Assembly (NCBI GenBank): GCA_040400005.1
Contig: JBBARC010000007.1
Location: 17,744 to 81,743, forward strand
Direction: 5' to 3'
DNA from: Acetobacteraceae bacterium
GTDB lineage: Bacteria > Pseudomonadota > Alphaproteobacteria > Acetobacterales > Acetobacteraceae
DNA length: 64,000 nucleotides
Position 1 is the stretch's first letter. The number at the start of each line of letters is the position of its first letter. Below are positions 3,475-59,222 of this stretch, piece after piece. The notes beneath the pieces were generated by a model. It was not told the DNA's origin. It saw nothing but the letters and a program-made list of their open reading frames with translations, and did no database searches. The position numbers were made by a program, and so were the translations under genes.

Positions 3475-4872
3475 ATGCCCCATGGAGATGCACCTTTGCA
3501 AATAAAGGCTACAACCGCCGGCCTTGCCCCGACCAATGTGGCCCCGATCAGCCTGGCCCTGATCAGCCTGGCCCTGATCAGCCTGGCCCTGATCAGCCTG
3601 GGCGCTTGCGGAGATCAGGCAAAACTTACGCAATCATCGGGCTACGGTGCCGCACCCGAGCTGCCAGCGCCGCCCCCGACCCTAATCCCCACGCTTAACA
3701 TAGCACCGGCGGTGCGCTGGCGCGAAGGTGGCACCCCGACAGTCGCCCAGGTGGCGGCTGGCGATTTGCAGGTAACCCGGTTTGCCGAAAACCTTGATCA
3801 TCCGCGCTGGCTTTACGTGCTGCCTAATGGCGACGTGCTGGTGGCGGAATCTAACGCACCGCCCAAACCCGAAGACAGCAAAGGCATCCGCGGTTGGGTG
3901 CAACACCTGGCCATGCGGGCGGCAGGCGCGGTAACCGAAAGTGCTAACCGCATCACCTTATTACGATCAACCCGCCACAATGGCATCGCGGACCTGCGCA
4001 TGGTGTTTTTAAGCGGCCTGCATTCCCCGATCGGCATGGCGCTGGTTGGGCGCGATTTTTATGTCGCCGATAGTAACGCACTGCTGCGGTTTACCTACGC
4101 CGCCGGCGCCACCGCCATTCGCACGCCAGCGACAAAACTGCTCGATCTGCCGGCAGGCCCGATCAATCACCACTGGACCAAAAACGTCATCGCCAGCGCC
4201 GATGGCAGCCGCCTTTACGTTACCATCGGGTCCAACAGCAATGTTTTGGAAAATGGCGTGGCAGCCGAAGCGGGCCGCGCCGATATCTGGCAGATAAACC
4301 CCGCCGACGGTACCCACCGGGTGTTTGCCGCCGGCTTGCGCAATCCCAACGGCATGGGGTGGTCGTCCACCGGCAAGCTATGGGTGGCGGTGAACGAACG
4401 CGACGAGATCGGCAGCGATCTGGTGCCCGATTACATGACGGCCGTGGTGGATGGCGGTTTTTACGGCTGGCCCTATTCGTATTACGGCCAGCATGTCGAT
4501 GACCGTGCCAAACCGCCGCGGCCGGATCTGGTGGCGGCGGCCATACCGCCGGATTATGCACTGGGCGCACATACTGCCTCACTCGGCCTGGCGTTTCATA
4601 CTGGCCCAGGTCTTACCGCCGCCTTTGCCGAAGGCGCGTTTATTGGTCAGCACGGATCCTGGAACCGTAACCCATTGAGCGGGTACAAGGTTATTTTTGT
4701 GCCGTTCCGAAATGGTGCCCCAAGTGGCGCGCCGGTTGATATCCTTACCGGCTTTCTTGACCCCTACGGCCGCGCCCAAGGCCGCCCGGTAGGCCTTGCG
4801 ATCGATCCGCAAGGCGCTTTGCTGGTGGCCGATGATGTTGGCAACATGGTGTGGCGGGTCAGCGCGCGGTGA
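3475..4872 (+). CDS. PQQ-dependent sugar (sorbosone-type) dehydrogenase, lipoprotein
   Basis: [29 protein letters not shown] and GSWNR strings fit the soluble PQQ sugar dehydrogenase beta-propeller family. Signal peptide ends in the lipobox LGAC. The ATG at 3475 was chosen; an in-frame GTG at 3538 is also possible. Confidence 0.85.
3541..3605 (+). repeat. 15-bp tandem repeat GATCAGCCTGGCCCT, about 4 copies, in frame (ISLAL)n within a signal peptide
   Basis: Direct reading: units at 3546-3560, 3561-3575 and 3576-3590 are identical; 3591-3605 is partial. Confidence 0.95.
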
Positions 4873-52077: not shown

Positions 52078-53256
52078 ATGGGCGTGACGCGGGCGGCGAC
52101 TCTGGCAGCGTCCCTGGCAGCGTCCCTGGCAGCGACCCTGGCGCTGGCTGGCTGTGTCACCGCCCCCAAACTGCCCGATGGCGCGCTGGTGGCGGTTGAT
52201 TTTCTCGATATGCCGGGCTGGAAAACTGATACCATCGCCGACGGCCTGCAGGCGCTGCGCACCGGCTGCGCCCGGCTAAAAACCCTGCCCGTCGATACAG
52301 CCCTGGGTGGGCTTGGCATTGCCCGCGCCTTGGGCGGCACGGCGGCAAGCTGGGCCAGCCCTTGCAGCGCCGCTGACGTGCTCGCCAGCGCCGATGACCA
52401 GGAAGCGCGGCAGTTTTTTGAAACCTGGTTTACCCCGTACAGGGTGGCAGGGCCGGCGCGCTACACCGGCTATTACGACCCCGAAATTGCCGGCAGTTTG
52501 GTCCGCACCGCCAATTTTACCGTGCCGGTGTATGGCCGGCCGGCCGATTTATTGGTTGGCCAAGCGCCAACCGATAGCACCACCTCGCGCGCCATGGGGC
52601 GGCTTTCGGCGGGGCATTTGGTGCCTTACTGGACGCGCGCCGAGATCGAAGCGGGGGCCATGGGCAGCGCCGCAACCCCGATTGCCTATGTCGCCAGTGC
52701 GGTCGATTTGTTTTTTCTGCAGGTGCAGGGATCGGGGCGCATCCGCTTGCCCCATGGCGGGCTGGTACGGGTAGGTTTTGAGGCCAAAAACGGTCGCCCC
52801 TACACCCCGATCGGCCGGGTGCTGGTGGCCCGCGGGGCAATCACCGCAGACCAGGTGAGCTTGCAAACCTTGCGCGCCTGGCTGCTGGCACACCCGAAAG
52901 AAGCGCCAGCGGTGATGGCGCAAAATCAGTCCTACGTGTTTTTCCGCTTGGTGCCCGATGCCGATCCCGCCCTGGGGCCGCCTGGTGCTCTGGGGGCGGC
53001 GCTCACCCCGCAGCGCTCGGCCGCCGTGGATCGGCGGTTTATGCCGCTGGGGGCGCCACTGTTTGTCGATACGGTGGACCCGTTAACCGGCGATGCCTGG
53101 CGCCATGTGGTGATCGCCCAGGATTTGGGCAGCGATATCAACGGGGCCGCGCGGGTGGATCTGTTTATGGGGGCGGGGGCGCAGGCGGAAGCGCGTGCTG
53201 GGCGCATGCATGGCGGCGGGGCGTTGTTTGTTTTGCTGCCGCGCGGACAGGATTAG
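52078..53256 (+). CDS. mltA: Membrane-bound lytic murein transglycosylase A (lipoprotein)
   Basis: Lipobox LAGC, MltA and 3D domain strings (YFLQVQGSGRI...; DTGSAI-like DLGSDINGAARVDLFMG). Confidence 0.85.
   Translation: MGVTRAATLAASLAASLAATLALAGCVTAPKLPDGALVAVDFLDMPGWKTDTIADGLQALRTGCARLKTLPVDTALGGLGIARALGGTAASWASPCSAADVLASADDQEARQFFETWFTPYRVAGPARYTGYYDPEIAGSLVRTANFTVPVYGRPADLLVGQAPTDSTTSRAMGRLSAGHLVPYWTRAEIEAGAMGSAATPIAYVASAVDLFFLQVQGSGRIRLPHGGLVRVGFEAKNGRPYTPIGRVLVARGAITADQVSLQTLRAWLLAHPKEAPAVMAQNQSYVFFRLVPDADPALGPPGALGAALTPQRSAAVDRRFMPLGAPLFVDTVDPLTGDAWRHVVIAQDLGSDINGAARVDLFMGAGAQAEARAGRMHGGGALFVLLPRGQD
52101..52148 (+). repeat. 12-bp tandem repeat CTGGCAGCGTCC, 3 copies plus one degenerate copy, in frame (LAAS)n within the MltA signal peptide
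   Basis: Direct reading: units at 52101-12, 52113-24 and 52125-36; 52137-48 is degenerate. Confidence 0.9.
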
Positions 53257-55031: not shown

Positions 55032-58000
55032 TTAGTGCGCGCGCACCAGATCTGCACCAAGATTGGCACTGGCAGCGCGCGACGCGGCAAGCTCGGTGGC
55101 GGCGCGGGGCAAATCGGTGGGGGTTGCCACCGTGGTTTCGGTGATCACGGCAAACAGATCGGCGTGCGGCCCGGGCGAGAATCGCCCCGCCCATTCGCGA
55201 TGCAGGGCGGCAAGTGCTGCTTTGTTGCGGCTTTGGGCGGTCGCGGCGGCTAGGCGCAGCACAATATCTTCGGCGGGTTTGGGGATCATGCCCGCGGGTG
55301 GAACGATAGCCGCCAGTAGCTGGGTTAAGCTTTGACGAGCTGCCGCAAAATCCTGCTGATCAGATTCCATCTCGGCGCGCATATCCAAAGCTGCGGTATC
55401 GGTGGTGTTGGCCAACGCCTGACGGGCCGCAGGAAAATCGCCGGTGCTGCTGTTGGCGCGGGCACGGACCAAACTGCGGGCGTTTGCCTGGGGGGTGGAC
55501 ATGCCGGCGGGGTTAGCCGGTTCGGTCGCCGCCAGCATCGCCAGTGCGCCGGGCCCGTTGCTTTGGTCCAGTGCCAGCTGCGCCAGCCGGTTGCCAAGAT
55601 CGGCGCGCACGGCTGGGCCGGTCGCGGCGGCCAGCATACGGGCCATAATCGGGCGCGCGCGCGCGGGCAGATCAAGCGCCATCAGCCGGTCCAACAGCAG
55701 GGGGGCGAGCGCCTGGGCGGTGTCGTCGATCGCCAGCAGGTCGGCGTTATCATCCAGCAGCGCAACCAGGTCGAACGGCGAAATGGTGGCGGCCGTGCCA
55801 GCGGCGGCAAGCTTAACCAGCACATCATGTTCGGCGCGACGCAGCTTTGGTAGCGATTGCGGATACAAAATTTCGGCTTGGCGCAGCGCGGTGAGCGCTT
55901 GGCGCCAGGCACCGTTTTCGGCGGCGAGGCCGGCCAGCGCCAGGCGGGCGGCAAGCTCAGTCTCATCACCGCGCCAGGCGAACAGGGTCGCATCAAGGGC
56001 GGCGGCGGCGGCGGCGGTGTTCAGGCGGCCTTGTGCGTGATCGCGCAGCACTTTGGCCAGGCGGGCGCGCGCCGCATCGCGCCGGTCGGGGCCGTAAATG
56101 GCAGCACCCAGGCGCACGTCGGCGGTGGCGTTGCTTGCTGCGTTATTGGCGGCGTTATTGGCGGCGTTGCCTGGGGCGGGGGCACCGGTGGGCGCGTGAT
56201 CGGCGGCGAGCATCGCCACCCGGGCGCGCGCATAAGCAAGGTTCGACGGTGGCGGCTGGTTGTTTGCGTGCGCGAATTGGTCGGCAGCGGCAACCAGGGC
56301 TGCCAGCGGGCCAGGTGCTAAGCGGTCAACAATGGCGGGCAGTAAGCGGGCGCGCAAAGCCTGCGGGTAGGTCAGCGCCAGCGGCCAAAGCTGCGCCAGC
56401 GTGCCGGTGAGGGCTGCCTGGCTGGCGTGGGTGGCATCAGCGATGGCGGAATCGGCCGCTGTCGTATCGCGATCTGGCGTGGTGATGGCGCGCCAAAAAT
56501 CGATATCGTCGGTGTGGCCTAAGCTTGCGGCGGCAAACGGGGTTGCGGTTTGCGGCCGGCCGGCCAGCCAGGCAGCAATCGCCTGCAGCGCCGGTGTTTG
56601 CGGATCGGCGGCAAGCGTGGGGTCTTCGCTAGTCGCAATATCCAGCACCGCCAACGCATCGTGGCCCAGGCCGAGTGCCAGCAGGCCCAAGGCCTGGCGG
56701 GTGCGGGCGCCGGCGCGCGCCAGGGCGGGGGTGCCGGCCACCTCGGCTAGGGTAATGGCGGCCCGCGCACGCAAGGCCGCCACCGGCAGATCGGGTAGGT
56801 CAAACCTCCGGGTCATCGCGCTGCCAGGCAGCAGTGTGCTGCCGCTATCGCCATCCACCAGTGCCAGGGGGACAGCACCGGTGGACGCGATGGTAAACCC
56901 GCCGCGCCCGGTGGTGAGTGCGACGCGATCAGCAAACGGTTGCACCGCAACCCCAAGGGCTGTGCGCAGCAGGGTGAAGTCGGCCATGTGGCGGGGGGCT
57001 GCGATGTTTTGCGCATCGCCGCGCTGGGTACCGATCAGCAGCTGCGCGCCAGTAAGCCGATCGGGCACCACGACGATGGCGTTAGCATCGGAGGTGAGCA
57101 AATGCATGGCGCCGTCCCGAGTGGTGGCGGTTATCGGTTCGGACAGGCTGGTTTGTTCGCTCAGCACGCAAACCCAGCCGTCGGGCCTGCGCACCAGGCG
57201 CAGCATGTGGCCGGGCGGCACAGGAATGTCGATGAGGGTTGCGCTTCTGAGCGAAATTTTCGTGGCGCTGCCAAAAAACCTATCGTCGCGTAAGGGGGAT
57301 AAATCGATTGGGTCGGGCTGATCGAAAATCAAATAGGCAACGCCGCCGCGCAGATAGGCGGCAGCGCCCACCTCGATGCCGTAAGGCAATAAAAACGCCG
57401 GCCCGCCGAGGGTTGCATCGGCCAAACGCACCGCACCTAGCGCTTGCGGTTGTTGCGGTTGTTGCGGTTGTTGCGGGGATGGCGGTGGCGGTGTGGTATC
57501 GGCACGCGCCGGCTCGGGACGTGAGGGATCTGAACGTGAGGGTTCTGAACCTGATGGTTCTGGGCGCGCGGGCGTTGGCGGCACCATGATAGCCGCAACG
57601 GTTGGCGGCGGTGGCGCTGCCGGTGAAACCTGCGCGGTTAACACCGGCATGGCGGCCGGCGTGGTGATCCGCACGATGATGGTGCGGTTTGTTTGGCTGA
57701 CATCTGCCTGCGCGCCGGGGGCCAGGGTAATGATGGCGCTGCCAATGAAGCTGGTAAGGTTGGTAATACCGCTGGGCAGGGCGGCTTTTAAGCGCCCAAC
57801 CTGGCCTGCCCCGGGCAGGGTTAGGCTCAGGGCATCTCCGTGCCGCGCTGTGGTGAATCCGCCGGAATCGTGTCGCACAAACAGCAATTGTCCAGCACTT
57901 TGGGGGCTTTGCCCATCGCCGCTGGCGGCGGGTGCGCTGACATCGACCGCCGGCCCGGCCACGGCGCCGGCCGGCGCCGCCACAACGGGTGCAGCCGCCA

Positions 58001-58190
58001 ACAAGGCGCAAACGGCGGCAAGCACCGTGCCAATCGGTATGCAAAAAGGGCGTAAGTGGCGCCTCCATACGCAAAAACGGCGCCAGTGGCGTTTCCATTC
58101 GCAAAAACGGCGCCAGTGGCGTTTCCATTCGCAAGAACGGCGCCAGTGGCGTTTCCATTCGCAAGAACGACGCCAGTGGCGCCCGGGCAT
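55032..58190 (-). CDS. Large (1052 aa) exported or membrane-anchored protein of unknown function, coupled to cheZ. It has a basic repeat N-terminus, a TM or signal segment, a Pro/Gln-rich linker, a beta-rich middle and an Ala-rich helical (TPR-like) C-terminus.
   Basis: Longest ORF in the region. Its ATG overlaps the cheZ stop (TAATG). Hydrophobic segment IPIGTVLAAVCALLAAAPVVAAP. No family recognised. Confidence 0.65.
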   Translation of the reverse strand: MPGRHWRRSCEWKRHWRRSCEWKRHWRRFCEWKRHWRRFCVWRRHLRPFCIPIGTVLAAVCALLAAAPVVAAPAGAVAGPAVDVSAPAASGDGQSPQSAGQLLFVRHDSGGFTTARHGDALSLTLPGAGQVGRLKAALPSGITNLTSFIGSAIITLAPGAQADVSQTNRTIIVRITTPAAMPVLTAQVSPAAPPPPTVAAIMVPPTPARPEPSGSEPSRSDPSRPEPARADTTPPPPSPQQPQQPQQPQALGAVRLADATLGGPAFLLPYGIEVGAAAYLRGGVAYLIFDQPDPIDLSPLRDDRFFGSATKISLRSATLIDIPVPPGHMLRLVRRPDGWVCVLSEQTSLSEPITATTRDGAMHLLTSDANAIVVVPDRLTGAQLLIGTQRGDAQNIAAPRHMADFTLLRTALGVAVQPFADRVALTTGRGGFTIASTGAVPLALVDGDSGSTLLPGSAMTRRFDLPDLPVAALRARAAITLAEVAGTPALARAGARTRQALGLLALGLGHDALAVLDIATSEDPTLAADPQTPALQAIAAWLAGRPQTATPFAAASLGHTDDIDFWRAITTPDRDTTAADSAIADATHASQAALTGTLAQLWPLALTYPQALRARLLPAIVDRLAPGPLAALVAAADQFAHANNQPPPSNLAYARARVAMLAADHAPTGAPAPGNAANNAANNAASNATADVRLGAAIYGPDRRDAARARLAKVLRDHAQGRLNTAAAAAALDATLFAWRGDETELAARLALAGLAAENGAWRQALTALRQAEILYPQSLPKLRRAEHDVLVKLAAAGTAATISPFDLVALLDDNADLLAIDDTAQALAPLLLDRLMALDLPARARPIMARMLAAATGPAVRADLGNRLAQLALDQSNGPGALAMLAATEPANPAGMSTPQANARSLVRARANSSTGDFPAARQALANTTDTAALDMRAEMESDQQDFAAARQSLTQLLAAIVPPAGMIPKPAEDIVLRLAAATAQSRNKAALAALHREWAGRFSPGPHADLFAVITETTVATPTDLPRAATELAASRAASANLGADLVRAH
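58041..58190. repeat. 30-bp tandem repeat, 5 copies (3 near-identical, 2 degenerate)
   Basis: GCAAAAACGGCGCCAGTGGCGTTTCCATTC at 58071, 58101 and 58131, with flanking degenerate units at 58041 and 58161. Each unit contains the dyad CGCCA-G-TGGCG. Confidence 0.95.
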
Positions 58191-58843
58191 TAGTCGAAGC
58201 TCGCCAGCAAGGCATCGATGCCGGATTGGTCCATGGCGCTGGTCGGCAGTTGCGGGCCATTGAGCAGGCTGGTCGCATCCTCCGCCGGCCGTGGCGGTGC
58301 GGCGCCCAGATCATCGCGGTGGAAGACGTTGATGATATGATTGACCTTGGTTTCGATCGCTTTGAGGGTTGCCACCACTTTGGTGATACGCTGGCCGGTA
58401 ATATCCTGAAAGCTGCAAGCCTCGTAAATGCGCGTGGTCACATCCTGCAGGGCGCGGCTGGTGGCCTCGTCTAAACTTGGTGCCAGCGCATCGAGGGATT
58501 CGCAGGCTTCCAGGATGGTATCAGTGGCGCACGCGGTGTGGACGACGATGGCATCAAGTTCGTCGGTGGCGGATGGAATGTGGCTGGCGGTGATATCATC
58601 CGCCTGCAACGCCGCGATTTCAGCCCGCGCATTGGCAACTGTTTTCGCAAGATCTTCTACTTCTGCTAGCAGCGCGGTTTCGTTAACCGAGAGATCGCCG
58701 TGCATGGTCAGCAGAATGGCACGCACGATATCGGCTACCATATCGGGCTGCGCGGCGGGGTAGGTGGTGCGCAGATGCGCCAGCCTGCGGGCCAGGATCT
58801 GCGTATCGGGCAAAGCGCTAGGCAGCGGTTTGGGGTTATGCAT
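58190..58843 (-). CDS. cheZ: CheY-P phosphatase CheZ
   Basis: Catalytic-region string FQDITGQRI (FQDLTGQ in E. coli). Start at the ATG at 58843, overlapping the cheY stop. Confidence 0.8.
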   Translation of the reverse strand: MHNPKPLPSALPDTQILARRLAHLRTTYPAAQPDMVADIVRAILLTMHGDLSVNETALLAEVEDLAKTVANARAEIAALQADDITASHIPSATDELDAIVVHTACATDTILEACESLDALAPSLDEATSRALQDVTTRIYEACSFQDITGQRITKVVATLKAIETKVNHIINVFHRDDLGAAPPRPAEDATSLLNGPQLPTSAMDQSGIDALLASFD

Positions 58844-59222
58844 GGCCAAGCACCTTTTCGATTTTTTCGCGCAAGGTTTCGGCGTTAAACGGTTTGACAA
58901 TGTAGTTGGAAACCCCCGCCTGCTTGGCGGCGATAACGTTCTCGGTTTTGCTTTCAGCAGTAATCATAATGAACGGCATGGTTTTTAGCCGGGCATCCTG
59001 GCGTACCTCCTGTAGCAATTCGAGGCCGGTCATCGGCTGCATGTTCCAATCGCTAATCACCAGGCCAAACGGGCTGGCGCGCAGTTTGGCCAGCGCCTCG
59101 GCCCCGTCGCTGGCTTCTTCCACGTTGTTAAAATCGATTTGCTTGAGCAGGTTGCGGATAATGCGCAGCATCGTTTTGTAATCATCGACGATCAGCACAT
59201 TCATCGATTTATCAATGGCCAT
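58836..59222 (-). CDS. cheY: Chemotaxis response regulator CheY
   Basis: VLIVDD...SDWNMQPMTGLELL...ITAE...GVSNYIVKPF. ATG at 59222 preceded by AAGGA. Confidence 0.9.
   Translation of the reverse strand: MAIDKSMNVLIVDDYKTMLRIIRNLLKQIDFNNVEEASDGAEALAKLRASPFGLVISDWNMQPMTGLELLQEVRQDARLKTMPFIMITAESKTENVIAAKQAGVSNYIVKPFNAETLREKIEKVLGHA

Follow-up and report, generated by a model that had tools for sequence, protein, structure and literature searches.

In a draft genome of an Acetobacteraceae bacterium, an open reading frame (ORF) of 1052 amino acids (aa), which begins at the stop codon of a cheZ-like gene, contains within its first 50 codons a 30-bp unit that is repeated head-to-tail and in frame. 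The repeat array is located in a window of 64,000 nucleotides (the whole stretch of DNA analyzed here, C7:17744-81743 of this genome, G000). The array is very probably the product of slippage that preserved the reading frame, and we favor, with distinctly less assurance, the view that it is translated as part of a signal peptide precursor segment which is cleaved off and which is close to neutral for its host.

A 30-bp in-frame tandem array at the cheZ junction

All genes at the locus of the array are encoded on the minus strand, and the phase of the ORF runs from position 58190 downward. Tandem Repeats Finder (TRF) called a single array there, at 58041..58181, with a period of 30, 4.7 copies, 92% matches, no indels, a score of 219 and the consensus unit GCAAAAACGGCGCCAGTGGCGTTTCCATTC. 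When a pattern search for this consensus with at most one mismatch was performed, 3 occurrences were detected as compared with none in 100 shuffled sequences, and the head-to-tail 30-bp repeat described in an initial annotation of this DNA is therefore real. The same annotation had counted five copies starting from the TAATG at which cheZ stops and the 1052-aa ORF starts. This overlap was confirmed from the sequence and the array does lie at the junction, but the first "unit" shares just its last 21 nt with the others; as its first nine bases (ATGCCCGGG) are outside the repeat, the number of copies is 4.7 and not 5. The decapeptide translation that had been given for the frame of the 1052-aa ORF was reproduced exactly and reads MPGRHWRRSC-EWKRHWRRSC-EWKRHWRRFC-EWKRHWRRFC-VWRRHLRPFC, followed by IPIGTVLAAVCALLAAAPVVAAPAGA.

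Divergence among the units is graded, the copies proximal to the ATG being 1 nt apart and the two copies nearest to the hydrophobic segment differing by 3 nt each. The longest run with an exact period of 30 measures 65 bp, the remaining units each bear distinguishing substitutions, and the array terminates in a partial unit. With near-identical head-to-tail units of a length divisible by 3, a location inside an ORF and a partial unit at its end, the array has the structure of an in-frame coding minisatellite (variable number tandem repeat, VNTR, or amino acid tandem repeat, aaTR). The 30-bp unit was not found elsewhere in the 3.27-Mb, 85-contig genome, and neither the unit nor the junction had an exact match in public genome contigs or in two scans of metagenome contigs. 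Nothing resembling the array was present at the cheZ/ORF junction of 62 relatives. A second genome of the same genus was not found, and the closest homologue obtained in a protein search was only about 35% identical. That the array varies in length is plausible.

The conserved start codon and the predicted signal peptide

The start of the ORF was compared among 70 orthologous Acetobacteraceae junctions in which both the end of cheZ and the ORF were inside the locus. In 52 of them the start codon (ATG, in one case GTG) overlaps the cheZ stop codon by one base, as TGATG or TAATG, a count which is a lower bound because several of the remaining junctions are script mis-detections of the cheZ stop; two further junctions show an ATGA overlap. 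Wherever a locus extends far enough, the ORF is almost always directly preceded by a cheZ gene, the C-terminal SFD end of CheZ is conserved in the relatives, and the genome studied here retains the ancestral TAATG arrangement despite the array. By this comparison of sequences, the family has conserved the ATG overlapping the cheZ stop as its translationally coupled start.

Downstream of this start, all full-length homologues possess an n-region of 0-13 aa (charge 0 to +2) and a hydrophobic core; an AxA-like site comes next and is followed by VRxGxHPGxGRxVFD, a conserved motif of the beta domain (examples of N-termini after the conserved start are MRLAGVLLLIWFALGVPAMAQQ and MRRAALALGAALLTSLPALAQ). 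In nearly all of about 70 homologues, Arg or Lys is present among the first few residues, and MRLAGVLLL is an example of the plain Sec-type N-terminus found in most of them. The window protein, with 47 aa and a charge of +15 versus 0-13 aa, is the only outlier in n-region length among the orthologues whose start is secure. Its first 50 residues include 15 Arg, 3 Lys, 3 Glu, 8 Trp, 5 His and 5 Cys, and its first hydrophobic 12-residue window begins at residue 48. The Kyte-Doolittle mean over 9 residues is at least 1.5 across residues 52-70, and A-G-A at residues 74-76 would occupy positions -3..-1 of a possible signal peptidase I site. A charged n-region, a hydrophobic core and an AxA motif in this order predict a Sec-type signal peptide cleaved by signal peptidase I, and no alternative in-frame canonical start would keep positive charge ahead of the core. 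Of the two alternatives offered in the initial annotation, an unusually long cationic n-region is consequently the better supported, by the conserved ATG and by the signal architecture of the homologues, although selection on its peptide sequence is not apparent.

Residues 1-94 gave no match at E<=10 to ESPR (PF13018), Tat or any other Pfam profile. A Tat signal peptide was rejected, as the RR pairs precede F-C-E or H-L-R and neither PF10518 nor TIGR01409 matched, and a lipobox was ruled out, as the Cys residues are situated before the hydrophobic core. Two orthologues have peculiarities of their own in this region. The orthologue at locus L157 has a 20-residue basic n-region which likewise starts with MPG, and the one at L125 (Falsiroseomonas sp. 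HC035, NZ_JBNXUN010000001.1) has its own small duplication, LAQDRV-LAQDRV, at the cleavage region of the signal peptide.

A possible origin of the array

The ancestral gene would have begun roughly with M-P-G-R-H-W-R-R-F-C-I-P-I-G-T-V-L-A-A-V..., and replication slippage or tandem duplication would then have multiplied in frame a 30-bp segment from the 5' end of the gene itself, encoding part of the n-region. Initiation would stay at the ATG that overlaps the cheZ stop, by coupling of termination and reinitiation, and the precursor would gain about 40 residues, consisting of EWKRHWRR[S/F]C units and carrying a net charge of about +15, before a normal core and A-x-A site. The n-region of a Sec signal peptide does not leave the cytoplasm, has positive charge as its sole requirement and is lost together with the rest of the signal; for these reasons such an insertion would be tolerated. 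Effects, if there are any, would concern translation initiation, by way of an RNA hairpin, or the kinetics of export, and the mature protein would be unaffected. The array would be one of many recent short tandem duplications, which are in excess across the whole genome and would survive where the frame is kept and the sequence is permissive, above all at gene starts.

Variation among the repeat units

The units differ at eight sites, five of them at position 2 and three at position 3 of the ORF codons, with no synonymous bias. Most of the changes alter the amino acid (E>V, W>L, R>P and F/S); a double change, AAA>AGG (K>R), is conservative. No relative of the 50-residue tail was found among 5.8 billion proteins, and a literature search yielded no direct published precedent for repeat-expanded n-regions. 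Nothing indicates selection on the sequence of the repeat peptide, and judged from its sequence the tail looks like a recent, unselected insertion in a permissive location.

Two other reading frames were considered and rejected. In the third sense frame, each unit has an ATG and encodes METPLAPFLR; 5 of the 8 differences fall there on third positions, which is not significant (p about 0.09 for one frame), and the frame continues into Arg-rich off-frame sequence of the 1052-aa ORF. The continuation of the cheZ frame (ANGNATGAVF) has the best codon score, +0.16, but lies behind the conserved TAA, and the SFD end of CheZ is itself conserved.

Alternative explanations for the array

Several observations weigh against an array that is translated and that originated from the 5' end of the gene. 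Scored with a codon table derived from the genome's long ORFs, the array has a log-odds score of -0.44 nat per codon in the ORF frame, where 50-codon windows of the ORF range from -0.17 to +0.63 and the off-frames average -0.48 and -0.54; by this measure the array resembles an off-frame, and its score is low because one odd 10-codon unit counts five times. That the ORF frame is open within the array is uninformative, as the unit lacks stop codons in each of its three sense frames. The composition (16% Trp, 10% Cys, 10% His and 30% Arg) is extreme for any n-region. A hairpin of -27.6 kcal/mol begins 7 nt after the ATG and, according to the folding prediction, could hamper initiation there. Homology of the unit to its flanks is not significant, and the 9-nt GAATGGAAA within it has no visible source in them. 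There are also matches to sigma-54 promoter elements in and directly after the array, which are possibly due to chance. Many other arrays of the genome adjoin an obvious start codon just upstream of it, some ending exactly there, and an untranslated position would for this reason be ordinary.

The array might accordingly be untranslated, the start having moved to the GTG at 58025 or later, and would then form a 165-nt repeat-built, highly structured intercistronic spacer, through which the scaffold gene would be expressed independently of, or less strongly than, cheY-cheZ. Besides the non-coding-like codon statistics, the lack of synonymous bias among units and the arrays that lie immediately upstream of clear start codons, strong hairpins between units speak for such a spacer: a single unit folds with -8.4 kcal/mol (z -1.4), two units with -24.6 kcal/mol (z -2.7), and the whole 231 nt has a z of -3.2. 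Strong pairing between units is however a by-product of the repetition of a near-palindrome; as modeled, these hairpins could lower initiation or help slippage. A spacer is unlikely, given that the ATG is kept in its ancestral, cheZ-overlapping position, that inspection revealed no Shine-Dalgarno-like sequence within 15 nt of the GTG, and that the product of this codon, MLAAVCALL..., has no charged residue before the core, unlike nearly all of the homologues. Furthermore, a scan of the array detected no sigma-70-like promoter and no intrinsic terminator, and there was no Rfam match at E<=1. A phase-variable contingency locus was rejected, as the 30-bp unit preserves the frame and promoter-like hexamers were absent in and around the array. 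It is also quite improbable that the translated tail is itself selected, be it as a cationic Trp-rich amphipathic helix, possibly metal-binding via His and Cys, that holds the protein uncleaved at the inner-membrane interface as a signal anchor, or that slows export, as extended signal peptides do in autotransporters. The AlphaFold2 model predicts a single helix over the repeat at low confidence, the hydrophobic moment of the tail peaks at 105 degrees, an alpha-helical angle (muH 0.72-0.84), the change from AAA to AGG in the last unit preserves positive charge, and long N-terminal extensions of Sec signals are known in autotransporters (PMC2805444). Compared with shuffled sequences, however, the moment is not significant (p 0.07-0.22), the tail is missing from about 70 orthologues as well as from the protein collection searched, ESPR and Tat profiles do not match, the mostly non-synonymous differences give no sign of purifying selection, and the near-identity of the units points to a recent origin and not to maintenance.

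A role of the array as DNA, with protein-binding sites on one face in the form of iteron-like dyads or amplified sigma-54 -24/-12 elements, is very unlikely. The dyad CGCCA-N-TGGCG occurs 100 times in the genome versus 70 expected from pentamer frequencies (observed/expected 1.42, rank 37 of 249 palindromes); it clusters only at the array, and its 30-bp spacing results from the copying of one unit. Neither a rep gene nor features of an origin were found nearby, the neighbors being flagellar, chemotaxis and polyamine genes. The iterons or arrayed regulator sites envisaged in the initial annotation were thus not borne out, the dyad not being over-represented, the unit being unique with nothing alike in 62 relatives, and the junction being internal to an operon. 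When scored over the 12 positions of TGGCACG-N4-TTGCW, units 1-4 (58071-58181) each read TGGCGCCGTT(C/T)TTGCG and match the consensus at 9/12 with the exact GG-N10-GC spacing, an 11/12 match (TGGCACGGTGCTTGCC) follows next on the same strand, rpoN and five sigma-54 activators are encoded in the genome, and flgE and flgF have motifs of 9-10/12 located 27-52 nt upstream. Against this stands the background of the genome, with 2588 matches at 9/12 (one per 2.5 kb) and 51 at 11/12, barely above the 37 of a reversed control; the motif is moreover favored in coding sequence rich in Leu and Ala. Among 62 orthologous regions (-400 to +250 of the cheZ stop) only 3 scattered matches of at least 10/12 were found, none of them at the junction, and the first start beyond the predicted sigma-54 transcription start would exclude the signal peptide. 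Least probable of all is an assembly artefact, affecting either the copy number or the array as a whole. The genome is indeed a draft of 85 contigs, but the exact run is shorter than ordinary reads and the other units are marked by substitutions, which makes a copy number created by the assembler unlikely; assemblers tend to collapse repeats rather than expand them, and hundreds of arrays with a frame-dependent distribution could not be produced by assembly error. Finally, it is doubtful that a lineage-specific burst of duplications at translation starts gave rise to a functional array whose copy number can be tuned, acting through the cationic pre-sequence, the hairpin and possibly sigma-54; if this were true, each added unit would extend the amphipathic pre-sequence and enlarge the hairpin close behind the coupled start, and would in this way set the amount of flagellar scaffold made or exported.

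Matches to the sigma-54 consensus at 11/12 were also observed elsewhere in the genome: TGGCAAGGTTTTTGCT is located 14 nt before the start codon of rpoN (C63:4165-5655, minus strand), and MTKYKLEYIWLDGY... at C42:25176 lies 108 nt upstream of a glnII-like gene.

Tandem duplications across the genome

Altogether, TRF detected 465 tandem arrays in the 3.27 Mb of this genome, or 142 per Mb. Arrays with a period of at least 10, at least 90% matches and at least 2.5 copies were regarded as young; there are 165 of these, or 50 per Mb, while 400-kb samples of three relatives contained 7.5 (G007), 2.5 (G021) and 22 (G016) per Mb; young short tandem duplications are thus roughly 2 to 20 times as frequent in this genome as in the sampled relatives. 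The third relative, G016, has a small genome (2.7 Mb, 45% GC); its raw TRF density is higher still, with 332 arrays per Mb and 42 per Mb at a score of at least 100, and fewer of its arrays are of high identity. High repeat content may be a recurrent trait of Acetobacteraceae lineages with small genomes.

The period is a multiple of 3 in 310 of the 465 arrays, and 276 of these 310 are located inside open frames of at least 150 aa, as compared with 90% of random intervals, whereas arrays with other periods are depleted from such frames (85/155 inside). This pattern is the signature of a frame filter acting on a general duplication process. Of 230 in-frame arrays in coding-scoring frames, 62 are located ahead of the gene or in its first tenth, a crude count because the start was set at the most upstream start codon. 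Other predicted signal peptides of this genome also contain arrays (Table 1), the units including FGALT x4 within a core and LAAS x3 ahead of a lipobox. Loss of genes that suppress slippage was rejected as a cause of the excess, recJ, xseA, mutS and mutL all being intact. At or just before the N-terminus of the otherwise intact MutL, a 24-bp x3.3 array encodes AGLANLAP units (C29:10107-10185).

Table 1. Coordinates of the array, its host gene and related features (window positions unless residues or another contig are indicated)
Feature	Position	Strand	Basis or remarks
Array in ORF phase, units	58190-58161, 58160-58131, 58130-58101, 58100-58071, 58070-58041	-	TRF, pattern search, sequence
cheZ-like phosphatase gene	58190..58900	-	Pfam CheZ, 7.6e-14; immediately upstream of 1052-aa ORF
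TAATG junction	58188..58192	-	cheZ TAA 58192-58190 shares one base with ORF ATG 58190-58188
1052-aa ORF (P0001), candidate PflA-like periplasmic flagellar scaffold	55032..58190	-	AlphaFold2 model, Foldseek, synteny
Predicted signal-peptide n-region, residues 1-47, net charge +15	58050..58190	-	Charge/hydropathy profile, homologue comparison
Predicted hydrophobic core and c-region, IPIGTVLAAVCALLAAAPVVAAPAGA, residues 51-76	57963..58040	-	Kyte-Doolittle, AlphaFold2 helix 55-65, homologue alignment
GTG, residue 56, first in-frame canonical start past array	58023..58025	-	Sequence inspection
Sigma-54-like 11/12 match, TGGCACGGTGCTTGCC, inside hydrophobic-core codons directly past array	58017..58032	-	-24/-12 consensus scan
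Predicted low-confidence helix over repeat	residues 4-43		AlphaFold2, pLDDT about 60
Predicted hydrophobic helix	residues 55-65		AlphaFold2
Predicted beta domain	residues 100-176		AlphaFold2
Predicted disordered Pro-rich linker	residues 180-248		AlphaFold2
Predicted second beta domain	residues 250-436		AlphaFold2
Predicted TPR-like superhelix	residues 470-1051		AlphaFold2
Signal-peptide array	C44:17791-17901		27 bp x4.1, (M/V)PQASIRKF units in n-region before hydrophobic core
Signal-peptide arrays	C12:43128-43182 and C10:25560-25615		In hydrophobic cores
MltA signal-peptide array	52102-52142
Lipoprotein signal-peptide array	3539-3601

Comparison with known repeat systems

Bacterial VNTRs of the mycobacterial interspersed repetitive unit (MIRU) type are the class of minisatellites with which the array compares, the array being known here from a single genome. 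In the opa genes of Neisseria, CTCTT contingency repeats are located in the region coding for the signal peptide, and units of 5 nt switch the frame on and off. The array has in common with these genes a slippage-prone repeat within the signal-peptide coding region of an envelope protein, but on/off phase variation is impossible, because a 30-nt unit can change length only.

The aaTRs of Borgs and of other repeat-rich genomes (Schoelmerich et al., 2023; PMC9879509) are likewise near-perfect, recent head-to-tail arrays with a flanking partial unit, their unit lengths are divisible by 3 where they survive in ORFs, envelope and extracellular proteins are enriched among their carriers, and the process acts across the genome and is mostly lacking in relatives. 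The present arrays differ in that they belong to a bacterial Acetobacteraceae chromosome and not to an archaeal extrachromosomal element, and in that they concentrate at gene starts. The unit in the window is basic and rich in Trp and Cys, whereas a typical Borg unit is disordered and acidic or rich in Pro/Thr, and the present case consists of a single genome. The long signals of autotransporters and of two-partner secretion (TPS) proteins, including ESPR (PF13018), also have an extension of tens of residues before a classical Sec n-h-c signal, which stays in the cytoplasm and is then removed, as is predicted for the window protein (PMC2805444). The likeness is by analogy of working only: the window protein does not belong to this group, as it has no profile match and is not an autotransporter, and its extension is built of repeats and unique to its lineage instead of being a conserved domain.

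Considered alone, the array most likely arose as a mutational accident that is tolerated; it is of modest interest and illustrates how tolerant an n-region can be, with 47 residues, a charge of +15 and 16% tryptophan. The duplication excess and the scaffold-like protein family are more useful by-products of this analysis than the single locus. The genome may be seen as an equivalent, among bacteria, of the repeat-rich cases of Borgs and ANME-1 and as a natural experiment on which places in proteins accept insertions, and the unannotated, cheZ-coupled Acetobacteraceae family with its predicted PflA-type architecture is a candidate for a function in motility.

The host gene, its neighborhood and its predicted architecture

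The gene order on the minus strand is fliL-fliM-DUF6468-motE-like-cheY-cheZ, followed by the 1052-aa ORF as the last gene of the operon. By Pfam, the upstream ORFs correspond to FliL, FliM, DUF6468, a MgtE_N-like protein (MotE-type), a CheY-type receiver and CheZ. The cheZ-like gene shares 43-61% identity with the cheZ genes that occupy this position in relatives. Downstream of the 1052-aa ORF, genes for S-adenosylmethionine decarboxylase and spermidine synthase are located.

Searches of the 1052-aa protein against Pfam (E<=0.01) and NCBIfam gave no match. Of 24 genomes sampled within the family, 20 contain homologues with 30-39% identity, and further homologues were found in 80 loci with Acetobacteraceae records, among them Roseomonas, Roseococcus, Belnapia, Rubritepida, Rhodopila and others; the members occupy the loci L005-L023 and L090-L169 and constitute an unannotated family across the Acetobacteraceae. 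An AlphaFold2 model built on 11 family members (mean predicted local distance difference test score, pLDDT, of 71) places beta domains, a linker and a tetratricopeptide repeat (TPR)-like superhelix behind the N-terminal helices (Table 1). The top match of this model in the PDB, as determined with Foldseek, was 9HMF chain K (9hmf_K) with an E of 3.9e-9, but with TM-scores of only 0.13-0.16. 9HMF is the PflA-containing periplasmic scaffold of the flagellar motor of Campylobacter jejuni. In the corresponding paper, PflA is described as an N-terminal beta-sandwich, an unstructured linker and a superhelix of 16 TPRs (PMC12222027).

As in PflA of Campylobacter and Helicobacter (PDB 9HMF), the predictions for the window protein comprise a signal peptide, an N-terminal beta domain, a linker and a long TPR superhelix, and the gene is part of a flagellar cluster. 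The window protein differs in having one additional beta domain, low TM-scores and no detectable sequence similarity, neither profile searches nor a sequence search of the PDB having revealed homology to PflA. Fold and context together make the 1052-aa protein a candidate PflA-like periplasmic flagellar scaffold, as a lead from modeling. Because a periplasmic location is predicted from the beta domains, the linker, the TPRs and the best match to the Campylobacter scaffold, the protein would require an export signal.

Other repeats were observed within the same ORF. In the Pro-rich linker, an in-frame array at 57444-57476 (9 bp x3.7) encodes QPQQPQQPQ and another one at 57519-57562 (15 bp x2.9) encodes PS(G/R)SEPSRSDPSRPEP, and near residue 700 the protein contains a run of NAANNAANNAASNA.

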